From a virus (lineage: Duplodnaviria > Heunggongvirae > Uroviricota > Caudoviricetes): DNA of 40,524 bases. A model generated the notes under the pieces. That model had not been told where the DNA came from. It saw only the letters and a program-made list of their open reading frames with translations, and ran no database searches. A program made the position numbers and the translations under genes. Each line of letters opens with the position of its first letter. The stretch's first letter is position 1. The stretch spans positions 1 to 40,524 of the IMG/VR virus record IMGVR_UViG_2627853794_000002. One strand, written 5' to 3'. Below are positions 5,473 through 39,156 of the stretch, piece by piece.

Positions 5473-6521
5473 GAAATCGTCCCCAGTACCGCCAGTTCGT
5501 TTTTCGCAATGGAGATATTGTCCACCGGTGCAAGCAACTGATGGCTGTATTCCCCGTTCGCACCGGAAATCGCCTCACTGATACGCGATACCTTCAGTTC
5601 TCCCTGCGGATAACCATCACGCAGCAGGAACGAACGCAACTCCGCGGTAATGGCAGCCCGTATTTCCGGTGTGTCCGGCGTCACGCGGATATGAAAATCC
5701 ACCGTATGTGCCACCGGCCTGAATACATACAAATCAGAGCCTGCCACCGGGGCCAGTGGCCCGATATGTTGTCTTGCTGCCGTTTCCGTTGATTCTTCCG
5801 GAATGGGATTAATCAGGTCACTGCTGGCAATCATCACACCGACAGTTCCCGTTCCCATCCAGTGACGGTATGTCCATGCGCGGGTAATGCCGGGCACTTC
5901 TTTAGCCCAGACGACATAGTCCCCGTCAGCCCCGCCCTGAGGCGTCCAGTAATACCGCTCAATGACGCGGGCGCGCCACGTTTCCAGCTCTTCAGTATCA
6001 AATCCACCTGTCAGGGTATCTGCCACGCCGGAAGACGGCAGACCATTAACCGGCGTGACCAGGATTAATGACGTACCGTCGTCAGCGTTACCGACCGCGC
6101 CTGCACTTGAGCAGGCGATCGGCACGCGCAGGACACCACCGGAGCTGGTTGCATCGGCAGTTGCCGTGTACTGAACCAGGTCATCGCGCTGAATAACACT
6201 CCCGGCGGTCACCTTCAGGCCATCGCTGACACCTTCCCAGCGCATATACCCGCTGGCAGCCGTGGCCCCCTTGCGCGGACACCGTTTCATCGCAGCATGT
6301 CGCGCCAGCCAGGACGCATCGCACAGGTCAGGCAGCATGTTCATTGCCAGATAATCGATGTACCCGTAAACCGTATGCAGCGCCGCCGCATACACCTTTG
6401 CCCGCACGTCTTCATCCATGCGCCGGAGCGTGTCGCTGACGTCCAGCCTGGCGAATAAATCGTTACGGAGCATACTGATATTTTCTGCCAGCGTCGGGCG
6501 CTGAAATTCACTGTCCGCCAT
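5463..6521 (-). CDS. Baseplate J-like protein (Mu gp47-like)
   Basis: 352 aa; synteny within Mu-like baseplate module. Confidence 0.65.
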
Positions 6522-22290: not shown

Positions 22291-22755
22291 CTACTTAATG
22301 CACTGAGTGCGGATATACTCCTGTGCCCCTTCCAGTTGCATCTGCATCGTCATCAGCCGCTCTCTGAGGGTGAAATAATCCCGTTCAGCGGTGTCTGCCA
22401 GTCGGGGGCTGGTTGCATTATCCACGCCGGAGGCGGTGGTGGCTTCACGCACTGACTGACAGACTGCTTTGATGTGCAACCGACGACGACCAGCGGCAAC
22501 ATCAGCGCGCAGAGTTTCATTTTCAGCTTTCGCATTGGCTAATTCTCTCGAGTACTTTGCATCGAGCGCAGCAACATCACGCTGACGCTGCTGCATGTCA
22601 GCGATGGTGGCGATCGCCTGCTTCAGCTCACTGACTTTTTTATCACGCTGTTCTTTGTAGGCGATGGCGTTATCACGGTAATGATTGACCGCCCACGACA
22701 GGCAGACGATGATGCAAATAACCAGAGCATAAATAATCGCGGCGACTCTGCTCAC
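22291..22755 (-). CDS. rz: Rz inner-membrane spanin (i-spanin)
   Basis: N-terminal TM then coiled coil; near-identical to lambda Rz as recalled; GTG start overlapping endolysin stop. Confidence 0.85.
22353..22535 (-). CDS. rz1: Rz1 outer-membrane lipoprotein spanin, embedded in Rz in +1 frame
   Basis: 60 aa; lipobox ...VVVGC; proline-rich PPPPP; matches lambda Rz1 as recalled. Confidence 0.85.
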
Positions 22756-23285
22756 TGATCTATCCCCCAACAGGCTAATGCGCTTTCCTGGTCACGACGA
22801 ATAACCTGTCCATAGCAGTTATTTGAACGTATGCGGCAATCGCGCCCACCATCTTTTATCCACCAGCGAATCGCCTCGCATGCGCCCTTACGATCACCGG
22901 CATTCAGCCGCTTATAAAACGTCGACGGGAAACACTTACCGGGGCCAATGTTATAGGGACAGAATGATGCGATACCGGCTTTCTGTGGCTCGGTCAGTGG
23001 AACTTTTATATTGCGCTCCACCCATGCCAGCGCCTTATCACGCTCAATGGCATTAACCTGAGCGCATTTTTCCTTCGACAGTTTCATTCCTGGTACGACT
23101 GGCTTACCGTCCACCATCGTTGCACCGCGGCAGATGGTCCATATGCCGGAACCATCGCGGTATGCCGTAGTGTGGTTACCCTCTTTTTCATCCAGAAACT
23201 GGTCAAGTATTTGAGGAGCAGACGCGCCTGCAGCAATCAGCGCCAGAACAGCAGCTGACAGGCCGTATTTGATTTTTGCGCTCAT
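22752..23285 (-). CDS. SAR endolysin (T4-lysozyme-type glycoside hydrolase with N-terminal signal-anchor-release domain)
   Basis: 177 aa; hydrophobic Gly/Ala-rich N-terminus followed by lysozyme core; phage-21-type partner of pinholin. Confidence 0.85.
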
Positions 23286-24167: not shown

Positions 24168-24242
<75 letters not shown>

Positions 24243-24245
24243 ATA

Positions 24246-24321
<76 letters not shown>

Positions 24322-24323
24322 AC

Positions 24324-24400
24324 TGGACCGCCACCGGGGACTCGAACCTCGCACACTCAACTTAAAGGGTTGACGCTCTTTCCTGATGAGCTAGTGGCGG
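24324..24400 (-). tRNA. Atypical tRNA, anticodon UUU (Lys?) with C33
   Basis: 77 nt; perfect 7-bp acceptor stem CCGCCAC/GTGGCGG, anticodon stem TCAAC/GTTGA, loop CCUUUAA, T-loop TTCGAGT with one A-C mismatch in T stem; CCA encoded. Confidence 0.55.
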
Positions 24401-24401
24401 C

Positions 24402-24477
24402 TGGTGGCCCTTGCTGGATTTGAACCAGCGACCTGGCGATTATGAGTCGCTCGCTCTCACCACTGAGCTAAAGGGCC
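24402..24477 (-). tRNA. tRNA with anticodon CAU, most similar to tRNA-Ile2 (ileX/ileY-like) rather than elongator Met
   Basis: 76 nt; loop CUCAUAA; acceptor GGCCCTT/AAGGGCC; CCA encoded. Confidence 0.75.
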
Positions 24478-24659: not shown

Positions 24660-24688
24660 AATATATGCCTTTCAATCTACTTTTGCAA
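24660..24688 (-). promoter_or_regulatory. Candidate late promoter (pR'-like), sigma70 type
   Basis: Minus strand TTGCAA - 17 nt - TATATT overlapping 3' end of Q-like gene; ~50 nt upstream of terminator. Confidence 0.4.
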
Positions 24689-25361
24689 CACTTTGCTTTG
24701 AAAATGCCACCTTTTGTTTTGAACGTGTTCTCATTACAAACAATAAAGCCTCACTATCAAGTCGGTGAAAAATGTGTTTCATTGCAACCCAGTGACGAGT
24801 AAATGTTTTGGACCAGTTTTTAGTTGTCACTCCCGCCAGTAATGCCAGCTCCTGGTATTCATAACCTTCCCCACCAAAAAGTTCTGCTTTTACTGCCTGC
24901 GCCGCCAGCCAGATTAATTTTTTCAGGCGTTCCTGCGTTTTCCCTGCAATTTTTCTGGTACCGGATTGAGTATTAAATTCATTCCACGCCCACTGTGTTA
25001 TCGCGATCTGATATTCCCAACAAATACTCCCGCTGTAACACCACAACAACCAGGCTTTATGATGTTCTTCAAGAGACAGAACTGCCCGTCGCCATGATGA
25101 TGTCGAAAACTCAACCTGACTTACCAGAGCAATTGATGAGCCTTTCGCCAGTGATTGTTTTCCCGGTATCGGTGGACTATCCCGCGTTATCATTCTTCCA
25201 GTCACTTCATCGCGGTACCGGATTTTTTTACGCCTGTAACGCCCTGTATCAAACATGGCATTCTCCTGCCAGGCTTCAAGCTGGCCTTTCGTTGCTCCGC
25301 TCAAATCAGCGGTAGCCACAATGAGTTGCTCGCGGACATACTGTAAATATTGGGTATTCAT
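24672..25361 (-). CDS. Putative late-gene antiterminator (Q-like by position); family not recognised
   Basis: 229 aa; located between rusA and late promoter/terminator/lysis genes as Q is in lambdoid phages; no recognisable zinc finger. Confidence 0.4.
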   Translation of the reverse strand: MNTQYLQYVREQLIVATADLSGATKGQLEAWQENAMFDTGRYRRKKIRYRDEVTGRMITRDSPPIPGKQSLAKGSSIALVSQVEFSTSSWRRAVLSLEEHHKAWLLWCYSGSICWEYQIAITQWAWNEFNTQSGTRKIAGKTQERLKKLIWLAAQAVKAELFGGEGYEYQELALLAGVTTKNWSKTFTRHWVAMKHIFHRLDSEALLFVMRTRSKQKVAFSKQSVAKVD

Positions 25362-26762: not shown

Positions 26763-26953
26763 GATTCACCTCCGCAGAGGTCAAACGCTGGATGCAAAAA
26801 ATCGCAGGTACATTTCTGCATCTGTGAAGGGAGAAGAGAGTTTGGATTGTATGTGCGCATAAACGTCCCCGTTTAGCGCAGAAGTCACCGGAGTTGTTCA
26901 GGCTCCGGTGACTTAATTATGACAAGTTGATTATGGAAAATCAAAGCTTGTCA

Positions 26954-27638: not shown

Positions 27639-27965
27639 TTAGTCAGCGGTTCTCCCGCGCCAGCGTTTGTTACTTTCTGATATTCTTTCTGTATCAACGG
27701 ACTCAACCTCACCTTCTGAAAACCTAACTGCATTAGCTTTAGCCATTGCCTTCCTAGCATCTTCTTCCGCCTGGCTAAAATGCACCTTCTTTCTTCCCTT
27801 GAAACTACCAACGCGAATTTTGGAAGAGGCCTGCGTCTTGTACTTGCTAATCCGTAATTGTGCCGCCAAATGGGCTTTTGCCTCGGTGCGGTTCGCTGGC
27901 TTCTTCTTTACTAATTCAAGGTCTAAATGGTACTGCTGCTCAGCTCTTAGTTTCTTCGGTTTCAT
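27639..27965 (-). CDS. Hypothetical basic protein
   Basis: 108 aa from ATG 27965 (MKPKKLRAEQQYHLDLELVKKK...); AT-rich; upstream of membrane protein gene. Confidence 0.45.
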   Translation of the reverse strand: MKPKKLRAEQQYHLDLELVKKKPANRTEAKAHLAAQLRISKYKTQASSKIRVGSFKGRKKVHFSQAEEDARKAMAKANAVRFSEGEVESVDTERISESNKRWRGRTAD

Positions 27966-28977: not shown

Positions 28978-29151
28978 TTAAACAAACGTTCGCCAGACCT
29001 TACCATCAATGACCAGGATTCCTGCCCGCGCCATTTTTGCCGCAGCCTGATTTATGCTGGTTAATGTCATACCTGTTGTCGCAGCAACGTCCGGCGCACA
29101 GAAGCTCTTGTGCGTCTCCAGATAATGAATAATTGCCTCTTTGCCCGTCAT
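28978..29151 (-). CDS. ren: Ren-like protein, C-terminally truncated
   Basis: 57-aa ORF MTGKEAIIHYLETHKSFCAPDVAATTGMTLTSINQAAAKMARAGILVIDGKVWRTFV, resembles N-terminal ~55 aa of lambda Ren (96 aa) as recalled; ATGA overlap with P stop. Confidence 0.5.
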   Translation of the reverse strand: MTGKEAIIHYLETHKSFCAPDVAATTGMTLTSINQAAAKMARAGILVIDGKVWRTFV

Positions 29152-29849
29152 ACAGTTGCTCCTTTCAGTCCGAACTTCGCTTTGATTTCTGCGATCTTCG
29201 CCAGAGCCTGTGCACGATTTAGAGGTCTACCGCCCATGACAGGAAGTTGTTTTACTGGTTCAGGTATCGCCTCACCACGGTTAATTCGCGCGGTCATACA
29301 AGTCAGTTCATCGGCAGCCTTGCGCCGTAATTCCGCATCAGTCAGCGCATTGGCCCGCATGTTCTGATACAGGTTGGTAACCAACCAGTAGTGCGCGTTT
29401 GATTTCCATGGATAAGACTCTGCATCCGGATAAAGGCCACGCTTCCGGCAATACTCGTAAACCATATCAACCAGCTCGCTGGCGTTTGGCAGCCCGGCGT
29501 TAACGGATGCTTCTTCCCGGCACCAGGCGACAAACTGCCCGGGTGATGGCAGGAATGGTCGATTCTGCCGACGGGCTACGCGCATTCCTGCGTTAACCTG
29601 TTCCATTGTGGTGATCCCGTTTTCCCGGAAAGCCAGAACCCACTGGCGGCGGATTTCGTTCAGTTCATTCTGGTCACGGTTAGCCAGGCTCGCCGGGAAA
29701 GTTGCCAGTAACTGGCTGAACACACCGTTGATGATCTGCGCTACCTGCTGTACCTGCGGCTTTTCGTCGTACTGTTCCGGCATGTTGTTGGCGATCCGGC
29801 GCATCTGCTCACGGTCAAAGTTAACCATCTGTGCGGCGATGTTTTTCAT
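29148..29849 (-). CDS. P: Replication protein P (DnaB helicase loader)
   Basis: 233 aa MKNIAAQMVNFDREQMRRIANNMPEQYDEK...; near-identical to lambda P as recalled. Confidence 0.9.
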   Translation of the reverse strand: MKNIAAQMVNFDREQMRRIANNMPEQYDEKPQVQQVAQIINGVFSQLLATFPASLANRDQNELNEIRRQWVLAFRENGITTMEQVNAGMRVARRQNRPFLPSPGQFVAWCREEASVNAGLPNASELVDMVYEYCRKRGLYPDAESYPWKSNAHYWLVTNLYQNMRANALTDAELRRKAADELTCMTARINRGEAIPEPVKQLPVMGGRPLNRAQALAKIAEIKAKFGLKGATV

Positions 29850-30865
29850 AAATCCACCCCGTAAATCCAGTCAGTGTTTGTCAGGTCGAGTTTTGATTTT
29901 CCGGCTGTCACGCCAGCCTGTTGCTTGTTACGGTTGATTTCGAGTTGGGTCCACTTGTCGCGGAGTTTGGCCGGACTCAGCACGTTACCTGACCAGAAGT
30001 TGTCCTGGCATGCCCAGCGGAACAGCACGCACATGTCGCGGTGGTTACGTCCGTCACGTTCACGCATCAGGCGGATATCGTTAGCCCACCCTGCAAAATT
30101 CGGTTTTCTGGCTGAGGGCGCGATGGTCTTCACCATGTCAAACATCCACTCTGCGGCGGTCAGGTCTTCTGCTGTCCCCCACTTGCTGCCGCTCTGAATT
30201 GCAGCATCCCGTTTCTCCACAGGAAAGTCGTTTTCTGGCTGGTCAGAGGATTCGCCAGAATTCTCGGACGAAAAAGGTTTTATATTGTCTTTTGTTAGTT
30301 TGTCTTTTGTGTTTACCTGATTCGGGTAAGTGCCTTTACCTGATTTGGGTAAACTTTTCTTACCTGATTCAGGTAAATTTACCTCTTTCAGGTAAACTTT
30401 ATTTTTCTTACCTGATTCGGGTAATGTTGACCATTCACTGACCACATTATTAATGCCGATATTCCGCCCGCTCTGAATAAAAATCCCACGCTTTACCAGA
30501 ACACTTTTTGCAGCAGAACACTTGTGCGGCAATATCCCGGTCAACTCGGAAAGTTGCTCGTTGCTCACCCAATCCAGTTTTTTATTAAAGCCATATGTTT
30601 TGCGCATGACAGCCAGGAAGACCAGAAGCTGGTGCTGTGTTAATCCGGCCAGCATCACAGCTTCCAGCAACTCATTTGCAATGCGCGTATAACCATCATC
30701 GAGATCTGCCACGCGCGGCTCCTTTTGTGCCGCATCCGGCACTGGAAAATTGAATATCTCAGCAGTGTTTGCCATAATTCCTCCCGCAATGAGTGTGTTA
30801 CGATTTGCACCTGAAAGTCGGTTCTGTTCCAGCAGACCGGCTTTCGCCATTTCTGAACCTGTCAT
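29846..30865 (-). CDS. O: Replication initiator protein O-like, ori iterons inside gene
   Basis: 339 aa; N-terminal DNA-binding region similar to lambda O, internal iteron array, overlaps P start. Confidence 0.8.
   Translation of the reverse strand: MTGSEMAKAGLLEQNRLSGANRNTLIAGGIMANTAEIFNFPVPDAAQKEPRVADLDDGYTRIANELLEAVMLAGLTQHQLLVFLAVMRKTYGFNKKLDWVSNEQLSELTGILPHKCSAAKSVLVKRGIFIQSGRNIGINNVVSEWSTLPESGKKNKVYLKEVNLPESGKKSLPKSGKGTYPNQVNTKDKLTKDNIKPFSSENSGESSDQPENDFPVEKRDAAIQSGSKWGTAEDLTAAEWMFDMVKTIAPSARKPNFAGWANDIRLMRERDGRNHRDMCVLFRWACQDNFWSGNVLSPAKLRDKWTQLEINRNKQQAGVTAGKSKLDLTNTDWIYGVDL
30313..30424. repeat. Replication origin iterons (5 copies of ~17-bp TTACCTGATTCGGGTAA) with adjacent AT-rich tract
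   Basis: Copies at 30313, 30336, 30360, 30379, 30408; AT-rich region 30270-30312. Confidence 0.7.
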
Positions 30866-31407
30866 ATCGCCCCCAGCATGGTAGTAACCATCGCCATCAA
30901 TGGACCAGCCAGATCCGGGTCCACACGAAACATCGACACAATACCTTCACTCATTTCCTTCAGTTTCTGGTGGCGTGGTGCGTTGAGAATGACAGCCTGT
31001 TTTGCCTCACTGAGTTCCTTTTCCATTTCAGCCAACCTAGCCATGAAGCTATCCTGCTCAACCAGGTAACCGCGATATTCCAGCGGTAGTACCGCCAGAA
31101 TTGCCGGGGTCAGTTCACGCACGTTATTTCGGTATTTTTCAGAATCGAATTTGTTATCGAGGAAGCGGAACAGCTTCTGGCGTGCACGGCTGACATCATC
31201 AGGGAAATCGATGGTGCCGCCGCCCTGCTCCCGATACTCATTCACAATGAGTGCGGCAACAACATCCTGATTATCTGCAGCCGACCAGGCGCGAACGGCA
31301 TCACGGATTTTTTCGTGGCCTGGCGCCTGTTTTGTTTGAGAACGATTTATCACCGCAGTCGGGCTAAATCCGCTAGTCTGTTGGTATGTAAGTGGTTGCA
31401 TAGTCAT
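30862..31407 (-). CDS. YdaT-like protein (CII-analogue regulator of Rac-type immunity regions)
   Basis: 181 aa; motifs EYREQGGG and PAILAVLPLEYR resemble Rac YdaT as recalled; directly downstream of cro-like gene. Confidence 0.5.
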   Translation of the reverse strand: MTMQPLTYQQTSGFSPTAVINRSQTKQAPGHEKIRDAVRAWSAADNQDVVAALIVNEYREQGGGTIDFPDDVSRARQKLFRFLDNKFDSEKYRNNVRELTPAILAVLPLEYRGYLVEQDSFMARLAEMEKELSEAKQAVILNAPRHQKLKEMSEGIVSMFRVDPDLAGPLMAMVTTMLGAI

Positions 31408-31431
31408 TGCCTTATCAGTTAACGCCGCAGT

Positions 31432-31659
31432 TTAGGCGGCAGAATTACTCGCGTTAAACAATGGTGCGAGGTCGGGACGAATATCTGCTGGTTTAATCTT
31501 TCCACCAGTGGCTGAGACAATTTTCATTACATAGCGGGCATCAATTCCGCCACCGTGTAGCCAACGCCAAACTGTGGGTTGGGCTACACCGCATAGATCT
31601 GCCAGTCGTTTTTGACTACCTGTAATACTGATTGCGAGTTGAATGGTTTGATTTGTCAT
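31432..31659 (-). CDS. cro: Cro-like HTH repressor (YdaS-like)
   Basis: 75 aa from ATG 31659; HTH ...LADLCGVAQPTVWRWLHGGG; divergent from cI. Confidence 0.65.
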   Translation of the reverse strand: MTNQTIQLAISITGSQKRLADLCGVAQPTVWRWLHGGGIDARYVMKIVSATGGKIKPADIRPDLAPLFNASNSAA

Positions 31660-31690
31660 TATCAATTCCTATTGGTATTACAATGAATGA

Positions 31691-31719
31691 ATAATAGCAA
31701 TGCGTATTAATCCAAGCAA
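31691..31719 (-). promoter_or_regulatory. Candidate pR promoter (toward cro) overlapping operator repeats
   Basis: Minus strand TTGCTT - 17 nt - TATTAT; operator motif copies CAATAGCAA at 31690-31729. Confidence 0.45.
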
Positions 31720-31733
31720 TAGCAAAACGTGTT

Positions 31734-31760
31734 TTGACCATCAATACGCAAGCGTATAAA
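31734..31760 (+). promoter_or_regulatory. Candidate pRM promoter (toward cI; near-leaderless transcript)
   Basis: TTGACC - 15 nt - TATAAA, ~10 nt before cI ATG; spacer suboptimal. Confidence 0.3.
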
Positions 31761-31769
31761 TTAAAACTT

Positions 31770-32462
31770 ATGAAAAAAGAAACTCTTGCTGATCGCTTAA
31801 ACCTAGCGATGGAACAATCTGGAATGTCTCAAGGCGCTCTTGCAAAGGCGTCTGGCGTAGCTCAACCCACAATCTGGAGACTGACAAGCGGCAACGCGCG
31901 CGGCTCAACAAAAATTGTTGAAATAGCTAATGCATTGGGTGTTCGAACAGAATGGCTCTCATCAGGCATAGGCCCGATGAGAAATGACGGTCAACAATCA
32001 GGGAAGCCTGCTGTCAGCCATTCAAAATACTTCAAGATTGACGTTCTTGATATAGAAGTCAGTGCCGGACCGGGTGTCATCAACCGTGAGTTTGTGGAAG
32101 TTCTACGCTCGGTTGAGTACTCGTTTGACGATGCTCGTCACATGTTCGATGGCAGGAAGGCGGAAAATATCCGCATCATTAACGTGCGCGGTGACAGCAT
32201 GTCAGGAACGATCGAACCAGGTGATCTGCTGTTCGTTGATATCACTGTTAAATCTTTCGACGGTGATGGTATCTATGCGTTTCTGTACGACGACACAGCC
32301 CATGTAAAGCGTCTGCAAATGATGAAGGATAAGCTGCTGGTTATCTCTGATAACAAGAGCTACTCACCGTGGGACCCGATCGAGAAAGACGAGATGAACC
32401 GGGTGTTCATCTTCGGTAAGGTTATTGGGAGCATGCCGCAGACTTACCGAAAGCATGGTTAA
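31770..32462 (+). CDS. cI: CI-like prophage repressor (HTH plus S24 LexA-like autopeptidase domain)
   Basis: 230 aa from ATG 31770; N-terminal HTH (SQGALAKASGVAQPTIWRL), C-terminal ...VRGDSMSGTIEPGDLLFVD... and K in ...HVKRLQ. Confidence 0.85.
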   Translation: MKKETLADRLNLAMEQSGMSQGALAKASGVAQPTIWRLTSGNARGSTKIVEIANALGVRTEWLSSGIGPMRNDGQQSGKPAVSHSKYFKIDVLDIEVSAGPGVINREFVEVLRSVEYSFDDARHMFDGRKAENIRIINVRGDSMSGTIEPGDLLFVDITVKSFDGDGIYAFLYDDTAHVKRLQMMKDKLLVISDNKSYSPWDPIEKDEMNRVFIFGKVIGSMPQTYRKHG

Positions 32463-32693
32463 ACGACCTGCATTGCGGGTCACACCGCATATTTATAGCC
32501 AAAGCATACCTAGCAATGGACTGAATGCAGCTTACAAGATATCATTGTTTTTCAAAGAAAAGGGAACAATACCCTTTTGAAAAGCAGCAATCATTGTCAA
32601 CGGCACTAATAGTACGCAATGAGCAAAACTTAGCTGTTTAATAAGCATGCAAATAATGAAGGTATCATCATATTAACAATGTGTTGGTGAAGC

Positions 32694-33017
32694 ATGAACG
32701 ACAATAACAAGAATACTCGATCGCCAGAAGAGCATGAAGCTGTAGAAAAAGCGTTATCTGTTACACGAGCAGATATCGCGGAGTATTTTACTTCATTCGA
32801 AAAGCAGCATGGCGATATGTTGTGTCCGCTATGCAAAACATCTCTTTGGGCCATCACGCCTAGAATTGATAGTGATGAGCATGCAGCTATTATCACTTTA
32901 CCATTGCCTAATGCATCTGGCAGGGGGGTTTGGGCATATCCTATTATATGCTCTGGATGTGGCTATATAATTCATCTTTCTGCAAGTTTTGTCGTAGGCA
33001 AAATCAAAGGAGAATGA
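32694..33017 (+). CDS. Hypothetical protein A with CxxC...CxxC zinc-ribbon-like motif
   Basis: 107 aa; C44PLC47 and C86SGC89; RBS ggtga; AT-rich; stop overlaps next start (ATGA). Confidence 0.6.
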   Translation: MNDNNKNTRSPEEHEAVEKALSVTRADIAEYFTSFEKQHGDMLCPLCKTSLWAITPRIDSDEHAAIITLPLPNASGRGVWAYPIICSGCGYIIHLSASFVVGKIKGE

Positions 33018-33472
33018 AAGTGGCTACTGTTGCAATAGATGGTTATTCATTCATCACGGTTTCCGATAGTTGCATCTCTGACACAGCGCTTCCACCTATT
33101 GAAAATACTTATGGTGACAATATATACATACCCAAAATCGTTGAAACCATAGGTCCGGTTTATCGCCAAAAAGACTTAGATCACAGATACATACTTTACG
33201 CAGTGGCTGTATCATTAGTGCTCACTTTAAGTGTTGTTGTATGGTCTATAGGAGGTAGGTTTATGGTCTACATTCCATTATACGTTGCACTTGCACCTAT
33301 CGTTTATTGGTTACTGAAGATTTCCTATGCTTACTGCCTCGTAAAATGTGCTGGCTCCAGTCTCCTAGATGACTTTGATTCTCACCATATTGAGAACAAC
33401 AGGTTTGTAAAGCGTATTAATAGTATTTCATTCAGAGTAGTTGCTATAACAAAAAAACTTTTCTGGAGATAA
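33014..33472 (+). CDS. Hypothetical small membrane protein B (2 predicted TM helices)
   Basis: 152 aa from ATG 33014 with aaggag RBS; hydrophobic segments YILYAVAVSLVLTLSVVVWSIGG and FMVYIPLYVALAPIVYWLL. Confidence 0.6.
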   Translation: MKVATVAIDGYSFITVSDSCISDTALPPIENTYGDNIYIPKIVETIGPVYRQKDLDHRYILYAVAVSLVLTLSVVVWSIGGRFMVYIPLYVALAPIVYWLLKISYAYCLVKCAGSSLLDDFDSHHIENNRFVKRINSISFRVVAITKKLFWR

Positions 33473-33473
33473 G

Positions 33474-33896
33474 ATGGCAGAAGGGCGTCTAAAAACCGCG
33501 GGTAAAAACAGCCTGCCTTTTGCCATTACCAGTGTTCTTTGTGGTTACATTAACCACATGGTTCCTGAAATTTTTCCGGAAGGGGAAATGCGCCAATGGG
33601 CATATAGCACGATCCCAATGCTATCGCTGGTTTTACTGTACATTATTAGGACAATTAAAGATTTTGGAACTATGAGTCTGGCTCGTCTGGCTATTACTAT
33701 ATGTGCTACCCCAGAGAAAAAGCGCCTCAAACTCATAATGTCTGATAAGCATGTCAGTGAGGAAACAAAAGCTATAGCCGAGGCTCGTTATAATCAAATT
33801 ATTCAAAAAGAATTAGAAATAGGCTCCAATGCGGTTGATTATGTAGTAGGTATGCCAATTGTACATAATCAACCCAGACCAACAATTGATGAATAA
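33474..33896 (+). CDS. Hypothetical small membrane protein C (1-2 predicted TM helices)
   Basis: 140 aa; ggag RBS; start 2 nt after B stop; hydrophobic segment TIPMLSLVLLYIIRTI. Confidence 0.6.
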   Translation: MAEGRLKTAGKNSLPFAITSVLCGYINHMVPEIFPEGEMRQWAYSTIPMLSLVLLYIIRTIKDFGTMSLARLAITICATPEKKRLKLIMSDKHVSEETKAIAEARYNQIIQKELEIGSNAVDYVVGMPIVHNQPRPTIDE

Positions 33897-33906
33897 TTCG
33901 TAAAAA

Positions 33907-33934
33907 ACCCGGCCACCGTGCCGGGTTTTCTTTT
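33907..33934 (+). terminator. Intrinsic terminator closing the cI-A-B-C transcript (tIMM-like)
   Basis: Stem acccggc/gccgggt, 6-nt loop, then TTTTCTTTTG. Confidence 0.65.
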
Positions 33935-34057
33935 GCCTCCCCTCATCACACAAACCGTTCAAAAAACCACCACACCTCACTTCAGTTATCGCTATGCGAT
34001 GCAAGTCACAAAATTAATTCTTTTTGCTATCAAACATTTAATATCAAAACACATCAA

Positions 34058-34102
34058 CCAATAGCAATAAGTATTGATATCACCAATAGCAATAGCTATT
34101 AT
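34058..34102 (+). promoter_or_regulatory. Candidate pL promoter with oL operator repeats
   Basis: Two copies of ACCAATAGCAATA (34058, 34082) sharing CAATAGCAA with the cro-cI intergenic repeats; TTGATA - 17 nt - TATTAT at 34074-34102. Confidence 0.5.
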
Positions 34103-34175
34103 CACCATATCGCAACAACACAACGATACGGCAACCACCTGATTCACCGTTGCGATGACCGCTTAGATCCGCAGT

Positions 34176-34586
34176 TTGAATTTCAGCAGGCTTCGGGGAG
34201 TGCGAGGGGTGAAACGGACGCGTGAACGTCGGTGTGACCAGCTGAAATCAACACAACACTTTATACCTCAGTCGCTTCAACGAGGCGGCTTAGTTATGAC
34301 AACCGGCGGCCATCCACCGCCTGAATACGCGCAGAAGTCTCTATATGTTCAGCAGCCCAGCTTACGGGCAGGAGTTTTTATGGTTCATCAACATTACGGA
34401 ACGCAGACCGTTAATCGAGGTGCGGTCATGCCAGGAATGCTGGTCAAACACAAAGATGGTACCTGGACTGCATCAGCTAATTTACGCGGACGGCTTTATC
34501 TGCATCGCGGCATCGAGCGCACTTATACCCGTGATTTGCTCGTGGAAGTTTTTCTCGACGGACGCGGTAACGGCCTGAATCGCTAA
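34176..34586 (+). CDS. First gene of leftward early operon; possible N-like antiterminator or Kil-like protein, start uncertain
   Basis: ORF track start is TTG 34176; Arg-rich stretch [15 protein letters not shown] near N-terminus; first ATG with RBS at 34296 gives 96 aa; ends just before gam. Confidence 0.4.
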
Positions 34587-37704: not shown

Positions 37705-38026
37705 GGCCTGTCAGTTTCTCAAGATATCCAGACCTACCGCTACCAACTGGATACGAACAGGCCGCCTACAGGCAACACGCAAAGACCCCACTAAACCAAA
37801 ATCTCCTTACCTCACAACGCGACAAGCCTGCATTGCGGCGCTTCAGTCTCCGCTGCATACTATCAAGGTGAGCGCGGGTGATGGCATAACAGAGGAAAGA
37901 AAATGTCACTCTTCCGCAGAAGTGAAATATGGTACGCCAGTTTCACATTGCCGAACGGTAAAAGATTTAAACAGTCTCTTGGAACAAAGGACAAAAGGCA
38001 GGCGACAGAGCTCCATGACAAGCTAA
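37676..38026 (+). CDS. xis: Excisionase-like HTH protein (AlpA/Xis family); 3' end overlaps int
   Basis: [33 protein letters not shown]... HTH; ORF runs 124 nt into int in another frame, true C-terminus uncertain. Confidence 0.5.
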
Positions 38027-39066
38027 AGGCTGAAGCATGGCGGGTCAGCAAACTTGGTGAAATACCTGATATGACGTTTGAGGAAGCGTGTGTCAGGTGG
38101 CTCGAAGAGAAAGCACATAAGAAATCACTGGACGATGACAAAAGCCGGATCGGATTCTGGCTTCAACATTTCGCAGGGATGCAACTAAGAGACATCACTG
38201 AATCAAAAATTTATTCAGCGATGCAGAAAATGACAAACCGGCGTCATGAGGAAAACTGGAAACTCAGGGCAGAAGCATGCAGAAAAAAAGGGAAACCTGT
38301 TCCAGAATACACGCCAAAACCAGCGTCCGTTGCAACGAAGGCTACGCATCTTTCATTTATAAAGGCCCTGCTAAGAGCCGCAGAGCGTGAATGGAAAATG
38401 CTGGATAAGGCACCAATTATTAAAGTGCCTCAACCAAAGAATAAACGGATCCGCTGGCTGGAGCCCCATGAAGCACAAAGGCTGATTGATGAATGTCCGG
38501 AGCCATTAAAGTCTGTTGTTGAATTTGCACTGGCAACAGGCTTAAGACGCTCGAACATCATCAACCTTGAATGGCAACAAATAGATATGCAGCGCCGGGT
38601 GGCATGGATAAACCCGGAAGAGAGTAAATCAAACCGCGCAATTGGCGTTGCGCTGAATGATACTGCATGTCGCGTATTGAAAAAACAAATCGGGAATCAT
38701 CACCGTTGGGTATTTGTGTACAAGGAAAGCTGTACCAAACCAGACGGAACGAAAGCGCCAACAGTAAGGAAGATGCGGTATGACGCAAACACAGCCTGGA
38801 AAGCGGCGCTGAGACGGGCTGGTATTGATGATTTCAGATTTCACGACTTGAGACACACCTGGGCAAGTTGGCTGGTTCAAGCCGGAGTCCCGTTGTCAGT
38901 GTTACAGGAAATGGGGGGTTGGGAGTCTATCGAAATGGTTCGTCGATATGCTCACCTTGCACCTAATCACCTTACCGAACACGCACGGCAAATAGACTCG
39001 ATCCTGAATCCATCGGTCCCAAATTTGTCCCAGTCAAAAAATAAGGAAGGTACTAATGATGTGTAA
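37903..39066 (+). CDS. int: Tyrosine integrase (lambdoid prophage integrase)
   Basis: 387 aa; N-terminal [14 protein letters not shown]...; catalytic region ...[39 protein letters not shown]; stop 14 nt from tRNA 3' end. Confidence 0.9.
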
Positions 39067-39080
39067 CTTATTGATTTAAA

Positions 39081-39156
39081 TGGTGCCGATAATAGGAGTC
39101 GAACCTACGACCTTCGCATTACGAATGCGCTGCTCTACCAACTGAGCTATATCGGC
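39081..39156 (-). tRNA. thrW: tRNA-Thr (anticodon CGU), intact; prophage attachment site
   Basis: 76 nt; minus strand GCCGATATAGCTCAGTTGGTAGAGCAGCGCATTCGTAATGCGAAGGTCGTAGGTTCGACTCCTATTATCGGCACCA; adjacent to proA as in E. coli. Confidence 0.9.

Follow-up and report, generated by a model that had tools for sequence, protein, structure and literature searches.

The 40,524-nt stretch of DNA analysed here (IMG/VR record IMGVR_UViG_2627853794_000002, positions 1 to 40,524; hereafter the window) is a lambdoid prophage of Escherichia coli, and E. coli strain MB15 is 99.9% identical to it across the region. The subject of this report is the immunity switch of this prophage, in which a cI repressor gene (31770-32462, plus strand, 230 amino acids) and a cro gene (31432-31659, minus strand, 75 amino acids) are divergently transcribed with a gap of 110 bp between them, as expected of a lambdoid immunity region. 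An integrase gene (37903-39066) adjoins tRNA-Thr(cgt) (39081-39156), and the prophage that carries the switch is integrated at thrW. The map orientation of the window is reversed relative to the customary drawing of lambda. On the minus strand, cro is followed by a YdaT-type gene in the position of cII (30862-31407) and by O (29846-30865) and P (29148-29849). On the plus strand, cI is followed by three small open reading frames (ORFs; 32694-33896) and an intrinsic terminator (33904-33929; a 10-bp stem with a T run), which is predicted to end the transcript of cI and these cargo genes directly ahead of the left operator (OL). The leftward operon starts immediately beyond (34109-34586, plus strand), with a leader of approximately 270 nt, kil (about 34381-34586; PHROG 294 Kil match, 3.1e-38) and then gam, bet and exo.

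The cI protein combines a helix-turn-helix (HTH) with an S24 peptidase domain. It has the conserved domains PF00717 (Peptidase_S24; E-value: 1.3e-18, 67.2 bits against a cut-off of 23.3) and HTH_3 (E-value: 1.8e-6). The N-terminal domain is a 434-like HTH with the recognition helix AQPTIWR, and the signatures of a self-cleaving repressor are present: GDSM with Ser143, VKRL with Lys180 and a cleavage site, SAG/PG (Ala99-Gly100), in the linker. In the PDB, cI matches the 434 repressor (N-terminal domain, E-value: 1.6e-5) and UmuD. Because the window repressor has an S24 domain, it should be SOS-inducible. Cro is an all-helical HTH protein of the YdaS type (Pfam YdaS_toxin, E-value: 9.6e-15; PHROG 35, transcriptional repressor), and its nearest solved structure is Xfaso1 Cro (3bd1). 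Its recognition helix, QPTVWRW, is nearly equal to that of cI (AQPTVWR versus AQPTIWR). A 24-nt inverted repeat, 83% complementary, is found in the coding sequences of cro (31567-31590) and cI (31854-31877); each arm codes for GVAQPT(V/I)W, which spans the turn and the first residues of the recognition helix, so that the DNA-reading residues are common to both regulators at the nucleotide level. This repeat fits with the two proteins potentially reading the same DNA.

The intergenic regions flanking the cI transcript share a short motif. The preliminary description had placed two copies of a 9-mer between cro and cI (31690-31729) and two ahead of the leftward operon (34058-34102), and all four are found there as three copies of CAATAGCAA and a one-base variant, TAATAGCAA, at 31692. 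The exact CAATAGCAA copies are the only three in the window (31717, 34059 and 34084, all on the plus strand). The 9-mer is not a whole operator; it is a half-site, the left half of 18-bp imperfect dyads. The half-sites CAATAGCAA, TAATAGCAA, TAATAGCTA, TAATACGCA, CAATACGCA, CAATACTTA and TTATACGCT give the dyad consensus yAATAGCAA/TTGCTATTr; written less strictly, it is yAATAGCAA/TnnnTATTr. A dyad matrix was built from five sites and used to score 40507 window positions; the scores below are from this matrix.

Three dyads at the right operator (OR), 25 bp apart, overlap the predicted hexamers of pR and pRM. OR1 (31692-31709; TAATAGCAA/TGCGTATTA; 23.4 bits, ranking 2nd) covers the -10 and spacer of pR. 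OR2 (31717-31734; CAATAGCAA/AACGTGTTT; 17.0 bits) overlaps the -35 of pR and adjoins that of pRM. OR3 (31742-31759; CAATACGCA/AGCGTATAA; 17.9 bits) is in the spacer and -10 of pRM, next to cI; it was overlooked in the preliminary description because the exact 9-mer is absent there. A second operator set with the same consensus overlies the predicted early leftward promoter, again as in lambdoid phages. It contains two strong, conserved dyads 25 bp apart, OL1 (34084-34101; CAATAGCAA/TAGCTATTA; 24.0 bits, ranking 1st) and OL2 (34059-34076; CAATAGCAA/TAAGTATTG; 22.0 bits, ranking 3rd). OR1, OR2, OR3, OL1 and OL2 are the five training sites of the matrix.

Three candidate promoters can be located relative to these dyads. 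The pR candidate (31691-31719, minus strand) has the -35 hexamer TTGCTT (31719-31714), a 17-nt spacer and the -10 hexamer TATTAT (31696-31691), the last of which falls in ATAATAGCAA, a stretch that is invariant in seven phages. The pRM candidate (31734-31762, plus strand; 9/12 in the promoter scan) has TTGACC (31734-39), a 17-nt spacer and TAAATT (31757-62). The -10 of pRM ends 7 nt 5' of the cI start codon at 31770, and no Shine-Dalgarno sequence precedes this ATG; the cI mRNA is therefore predicted to be leaderless or nearly so. The pL candidate (34074-34102, plus strand; 10/12 in the scan) has TTGATA (34074-79), a 17-nt spacer and TATTAT (34097-102), and equivalent pL hexamers with 17-nt spacers are found in Salmonella phage ST104 and in Klebsiella phage ST11-VIM1phi8.2. 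OL1 covers the spacer and -10 of pL. The TATTG end of OL2 is the source of the TTG in the pL -35 (its last three bases) and the TATTA end of OL1 gives most of the pL -10.

This coincidence of dyad ends and promoter elements is one reason to ask whether the 9-mer recurs by chance in AT-rich DNA or as part of similar promoters. The region is AT-rich and the exact count of CAATAGCAA is modestly unusual, with a mean of 0.45 in shuffled sequences and a count of three reached in 2 of 100 shuffles. The dyads as a whole behave differently. The pattern AATA-N8-TATT matches the entire window only at 31693, 34060 and 34085 (0.39 expected), and an unbiased repeat search recovered a 49-nt direct repeat that joins OR1-OR2 to OL2-OL1. 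The training sites rank 1st, 2nd, 3rd, 5th and 6th of the 40507 positions, the 4th rank being taken by an untrained site at 31663-31680, so the top six dyad positions of the 40.5 kb are all within the two intergenic regions. To avoid circularity, each locus was also used to predict the other. The best non-training matches of a matrix trained on OL only are 31663 (19.0 bits) and 31692 (16.7 bits); those of a matrix trained on OR only are 34084 (18.9 bits), 34059 (15.9 bits) and 31663 (15.7 bits). The best score over 60 dinucleotide shuffles averages 11.9 bits (standard deviation 2.1), compared with 16-26 observed. Dyad symmetry, the fixed 25-bp spacing, this cross-prediction between loci and, as described below, the conservation across genera of outer half-site bases beyond the hexamers and the joint replacement of both loci by a different dyad where the repressor HTH differs all argue against chance or promoter repetition. 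Similarity to promoters would predict none of these features, and we regard this explanation as extremely improbable. The sole dyad-matrix match outside the immunity region at the level of the shuffle maximum is CATTAGCTTTAGCCATTG at 27731-27748 (15.3 bits, OL-trained); without AATA and TATT at its ends, it is probably a chance match.

The cro-OR-cI and OL segments recur in coliphages 4A7, Lambda_4C10, PhiR68_2 and others and, at approximately 76% DNA identity, in Klebsiella phage ST11-VIM1phi8.2 and the Salmonella P22-like phages ST104, BTP1, SE1 and ST160. The cI of ST104 is 86% identical to that of the window overall, its HTH is identical, and the Cro recognition helix is also identical. 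In ST11-VIM1phi8.2, ST104, BTP1, 4A7 and PhiR68_2 (7-9 kb searched in each), the best matrix matches are confined to OR and the region ahead of the leftward operon; the OL sequences of these relatives differ from that of the window and none was used in training. Alignments show invariance of the outer AATAGC/GCTATT bases, whereas the four to six positions at the centre are variable. For example, the outer bases of OR1 are invariant across seven phages and its centre is variable, CAATAG of OR2 is invariant in seven phages, and OR3 is retained in phages ST104, BTP1 and ST11-VIM1phi8.2. Invariant outer bases around a variable centre are the pattern expected of a 434-like HTH dimer, if such a dimer is indeed the reader. 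Two sequence variants were seen among the relatives. In BTP1 (5550-5567, TAATAACAA) and in 4A7 (5740-5757, CAATAACAA), one OL dyad each has A in place of G in the AATAGC core, which is otherwise invariant, and OR3 of BTP1 has TAATACTCA in place of TAATACGCA. The immunity module is common: the segment 31403-31905 is present at an identity of at least 95% in 722 of 5426 complete E. coli genomes (13%).

Operators change at the same positions where recognition helices change. The window, the Klebsiella phage, ST104 and BTP1 combine cI QPTIWR and Cro QPTVWRW with AATAGC..GCTATT; HK639 combines cI QPAIQK and Cro QPAVHK with the operator ATAACCnnGGTTAT; and PhiR34_1 combines cI QAAIQK and Cro QQAVYK with the operator ACAAC..GTTGT. 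PhiR34_1 is the most informative of these, as its cI is that of the window from about residue 84 on and its HTH is different. By blastn, its DNA is 98% identical to the window over O and ydaT (29820-31402), 90% over the rest of cI (31906-32461) and 96% from the terminator, which it keeps, onward. Only two segments are replaced. The first (31403-31905), comprising cro, OR and the first 45 or so codons of cI with the HTH, is not alignable with PhiR34_1. The second (34019-34108) is a 90-bp OL/pL cassette that is unrelated in PhiR34_1 in pairwise alignment, with nearly identical flanks; it is replaced as a unit and contains every OL site and the pL hexamers. The two-segment exchange in PhiR34_1 is, at the genome level, the defining signature of an immunity region, known also from the classical imm434 and imm21 hybrids. 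The mosaic junction inside cI is at 31905/31906 (about codon 46), just past the recognition helix, at TKIVEIANALGV. In PhiR34_1, PhiR5_1, PhiR47_2 and Turner, the downstream 80% of cI is 90-100% identical and the HTH is different. The junction shows that repressor specificity is exchanged by domain.

Because the operators co-vary with Cro as well as with cI, the dyads could be real and yet be read mainly by Cro or another protein of the module, with cI using other sequences such as direct repeats. Overlapping direct half-sites with a 6-nt offset are indeed present in OL1 and in the site at 31663-31680, and in the related switch of CP-933P exact sequences could not be assigned to the repressor PaaR2 as opposed to YdaS (PMC8630535). 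The helices of cI and Cro in the window are, however, nearly identical (AQPTIWR and AQPTVWR). Phages Fraca and ASU11 separate the two proteins: their cI helix, QPTIWR, is retained in an N-terminal domain of only 73-79% identity, and AATAGC dyads as in the window are kept despite a Cro helix of QPSVSRW. In both phages the top matrix match is the OR dyad and the second-best is downstream of cI, and OR of Fraca carries the perfect palindrome TAATAGCAATTGCTATTG. In addition, the closest solved relative of the cI N-terminal domain, the 434 repressor, binds dyads as a dimer. Reading mainly by Cro or another protein of the module is on these grounds quite improbable.

Taken with the gene identities, the cross-prediction, the cross-genus conservation and the module swap support the earlier proposal that the OR and OL sites are operators of one repressor. 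It is highly probable that the locus is a lambda-style immunity switch in which the cI of this prophage reads common 18-bp dyads over OR and OL.

Several observations weigh against this reading. The searchable literature yielded no binding, footprint or transcription-start data for this switch. Much of the conservation among E. coli phages comes from recent common descent and not from selection, for which reason only the cross-genus and heteroimmune comparisons are informative. The candidate hexamers with 17-nt spacing that had been described for pR on the minus strand and pL on the plus strand are both present, but the pR -35 is weak (a 3/6 match), and pR is absent from the promoter-scanner list on that account. 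The scan found 7 sites in comparison with 7.5 in shuffled sequences; with no excess, hexamer matches alone are no evidence and serve for location only. Finally, some of the sites are poor. OR2 has a single good half-site (left 12.3 bits, right 4.8 bits). The site at 31663-31680 (18.2 bits), here called ORx, is a candidate auxiliary operator in which a strong half-site on the minus strand, TAATACCAA, is paired with a weak partner, so that it is not a clean dyad. OL3 (34039-34056; TAATATCAA/AACACATCA) is a weak candidate of 2.4 bits in which only the left half matches well and the right half scores -5.2 bits; it was proposed from geometry (half-site, N6, 18-mer, N2, 18-mer, N7, 18-mer). OL4 (34015-34032; 9.2 bits, ranking 12th) is a weak distal site in which only the right half, TTGCTATCA (34024-32), matches well and the left half scores 2.3 bits. 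These auxiliary weaker sites, like OR3, had escaped the preliminary description.

The weak halves of OR2, OL3 and OL4 raise a third explanation, in which only the strong dyads OR1, OR3, OL1 and OL2 work, the remaining sites (OR2, ORx, OL3 and OL4) are decayed or fortuitous, and there is neither activation from OR2 nor higher-order looping. Lambdoid switches with other numbers of sites and without cooperativity do exist, the 933W repressor being a reported example (PMC3317979). Conservation speaks for the weaker sites. Phages of E. coli, Klebsiella and Salmonella share one and the same OR2 sequence despite differing flanks. The spacing of the OL half-sites is exactly maintained from genus to genus, and the OL layout of the window recurs in the Klebsiella phage, with a full dyad at the position of OL3. 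TTGCTATCAA of OL4 is invariant in five phages of three genera. ORx, which is 29 bp from OR1 and covers the cro ribosome-binding site (approximately +4 to +21 of the predicted pR transcript), keeps its position and half-site in the Klebsiella phage (CAATTCCTATAAGTATTG); in ST104 and BTP1 the half-site, again 29 bp from OR1, is more weakly kept. OR2 of lambda is likewise intrinsically weak and cooperatively filled, and the predicted combination here of a strong OR1 and a weak OR2 resembles that of lambda. A switch with the four strong dyads only seems rather unlikely, and OR2 is part of the proposed model.

The proposed model for the lambda-style switch draws on two kinds of material: the sites, their statistics, the hexamer overlap, the conservation and the co-variation with helices were obtained here, and the binding order, cooperativity, activation, looping and induction follow by analogy with lambda, 434 and CP-933P. 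The model is as follows. A cI dimer would read the 18-bp dyads through the outer AATAGC bases, leaving the centre unread. Matrix scores predict the order OR1 > OR3 > OR2 and OL1 > OL2. In a lysogen, OR1 with OR2 and OL1 with OL2, cooperatively filled by cI, would silence pR (cro-ydaT-O-P) and pL (kil-gam-bet-exo...int). Since the ends of the OL dyads supply bases of the pL -35 and -10, bound repressor would occlude RNA polymerase. The predicted start of pRM is approximately 43 bp downstream of the centre of OR2, as in the activation of pRM by lambda cI, and cI bound to OR2 would probably stimulate pRM. OR3 would probably serve for negative autoregulation, possibly aided by an OL-OR loop over 2.39 kb. 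Cro would use the same sites in the opposite order and shut off pRM. RecA-stimulated self-cleavage of cI at Ala99-Gly100, suggested by the motifs only, would induce the prophage.

The design of the switch is that of a textbook lambdoid phage. In common with lambda, the window has a divergent repressor and cro around three operators approximately 24-25 bp apart over pR and pRM, an OR2 that abuts the pRM -35, an apparently leaderless repressor mRNA, a self-cleaving S24 C-terminal domain and, approximately 2.4 kb away on the far side of cargo genes and a terminator, a second operator set over pL. Unlike lambda, with its 17-bp operators of the TATCACCGC type, the window has an 18-bp yAATAGCAA dyad. 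It also differs from lambda in its HTH_3 434-like cI, its all-helical YdaS-type Cro, the YdaT-type protein in the cII position, the lack of an N gene and the possible fourth sites. The window switch does not appear to be imm-lambda. As in 434, where the centre is not contacted, the operator is a dyad with conserved outer bases and a variable centre; the operators of 434 differ in being 14 bp long (ACAA-N6-TTGT), and the 434 repressor has low sequence identity to that of the window.

Another parallel is the PaaR2/YdaS/YdaT switch of CP-933P of E. coli O157:H7, which has been studied by electrophoretic mobility shift assays, footprinting and reporters (PMC8630535, PMC9986795). It has four 18-bp palindromes at OR, three operators at OL and a leaderless repressor mRNA, paaR2 (PMC8630535). 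YdaS as Cro, YdaT as the CII equivalent, the 18-bp palindromes and the cargo behind the repressor are shared with the window, whereas the PaaR2 half-site consensus is GTTTAGTAA and it is the window repressor that has an S24 domain. CP-933P YdaT binds the inverted repeat TTGATTN6AATCAA (PMC9986795). The window contains an exact copy of this repeat at 26927-26944 and a copy with one mismatch, TTGATTTGTCATTATCAA, at 31648-31665, which spans the cro start codon and adjoins ORx; with up to two mismatches there are 5 copies in comparison with 2.3 expected, an excess that is not significant.

The cI proteins of HK022 and HK639 are homologues, 40% and 45% identical to the window cI, respectively, and HK639 has the same cro/ydaT-type layout with three dyads of 14-bp core at the spacing found in the window. 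The operator sequences of both phages (TGAAC..GTTCA in HK022 and ATAACCnnGGTTAT in HK639) are unlike those of the window, and both have put or put-like antiterminator RNAs. As cI and cro are described as 'similar to HK022' in the ST104 annotation, HK022 immunity was considered and rejected: the 40% identity of cI is mostly in the C-terminal domain and the recognition helix is unrelated, the HK022 OR is of an unrelated TGAACCATAAGTTCA type (consensus TGAACnnnnGTTCA), and the window matrix gives no match in HK022.

An 'ST104' repressor specificity type was named by Casjens and colleagues in the epsilon34 paper, without an operator description (PMC2629481). By its cI and Cro helices and its OR and OL consensus, which are the same, the window can be placed in this type as judged from the aligned sequences. 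ST104, BTP1, SE1, ST160 and ST11-VIM1phi8.2 differ from the window in having other virion and replication modules, an N-like gene 24 and other cargo (BstA in BTP1). As the ST104/BTP1-type phages share the HTHs and the dyads, they are predicted to be homoimmune with the window prophage.

Early antitermination in the window may depart from that of lambda. Searches of the window by tblastn with lambda N, P22-type gp24, BTP1 N and HK022 Nun gave nothing below E = 3. A put-like RNA downstream of pL, as annotated in HK639, was also considered and is not supported: the leader has no significant similarity to the put regions of HK022 and HK639, its fold z-score is -1.0, there is no Rfam match, and no second copy is found downstream of pR. 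The leader (34109-34380, plus strand) is approximately 97% identical in heteroimmune phages and is shared from the predicted pL start at 34109 on. A long TTG-initiated ORF at 34176 has an arginine-rich N-terminus in frame with kil; only its residues 60-135 match the Kil family. Phages of E. coli, Salmonella and Klebsiella all retain the spacing of the distal OL half-dyads. It is conceivable, though doubtful, that the conserved extra sites (a fourth OR site over the cro ribosome-binding site and two distal OL half-dyads) go beyond the lambda plan and that early antitermination is N-independent and follows an undescribed route.

The three cargo ORFs between cI and the terminator (107, 152 and 140 amino acids) have a GC content of 38-42%, compared with 50% for the window. 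They occupy the position of lambda rexAB, where they probably share the pRM transcript with cI, and do not belong to the switch itself. Searches of Pfam, PADLOC and NCBIfam assigned none of them to a family, and PHROGs gave only one marginal match. Two CxxC pairs occur in ORF1 and two hydrophobic segments in ORF2. The whole three-ORF cassette is present in only 4 of the 5426 E. coli genomes, and relatives carry in the same slot a HipA-family kinase with a DUF3037 protein, GevT/GevA, an ASCH-domain protein or, in BTP1, BstA. The rexAB-like slot, low GC content, rarity and varied cargo in relatives make the cassette a candidate exclusion or defence cassette.

Two further features were observed elsewhere in the prophage. 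Inside O (30308-30424) are five copies of a repeat of approximately 22 nt, with a core, TTACCTGATTCGGGTAA, that is itself palindromic and a spacing of 19-29 nt; the arrangement resembles the iterons in a lambdoid origin of replication. A cluster of four tRNA genes (Gly-tcc, Thr-tgt, Lys-ttt and Met-cat; 24168-24477, minus strand) is located between an ORF of 229 amino acids (24672-25361) and one of 177 amino acids (22752-23285).

A literature search found no published operator for the motif strings or for the ST104/BTP1 type, and the consensus yAATAGCAA/TTGCTATTr therefore appears to be new for a known kind of system. As the design is a textbook one, little changes conceptually. The finding instead supplies an operator consensus for a very common immunity type, the same HTH being found in Salmonella BTP1, ST104 and SE1 and in Klebsiella prophages, with which annotators can locate pR, pRM and pL and predict homoimmunity among such prophages. 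If the repressor fills the extra sites, the switch would have four-plus-four operators, maybe with a roadblock on cro and an OL-OR complex larger than the octamer plus tetramer of lambda. The related phages also provide a natural series for the study of HTH specificity, in which three recognition helices are matched with three operators on a repressor scaffold that is otherwise identical.

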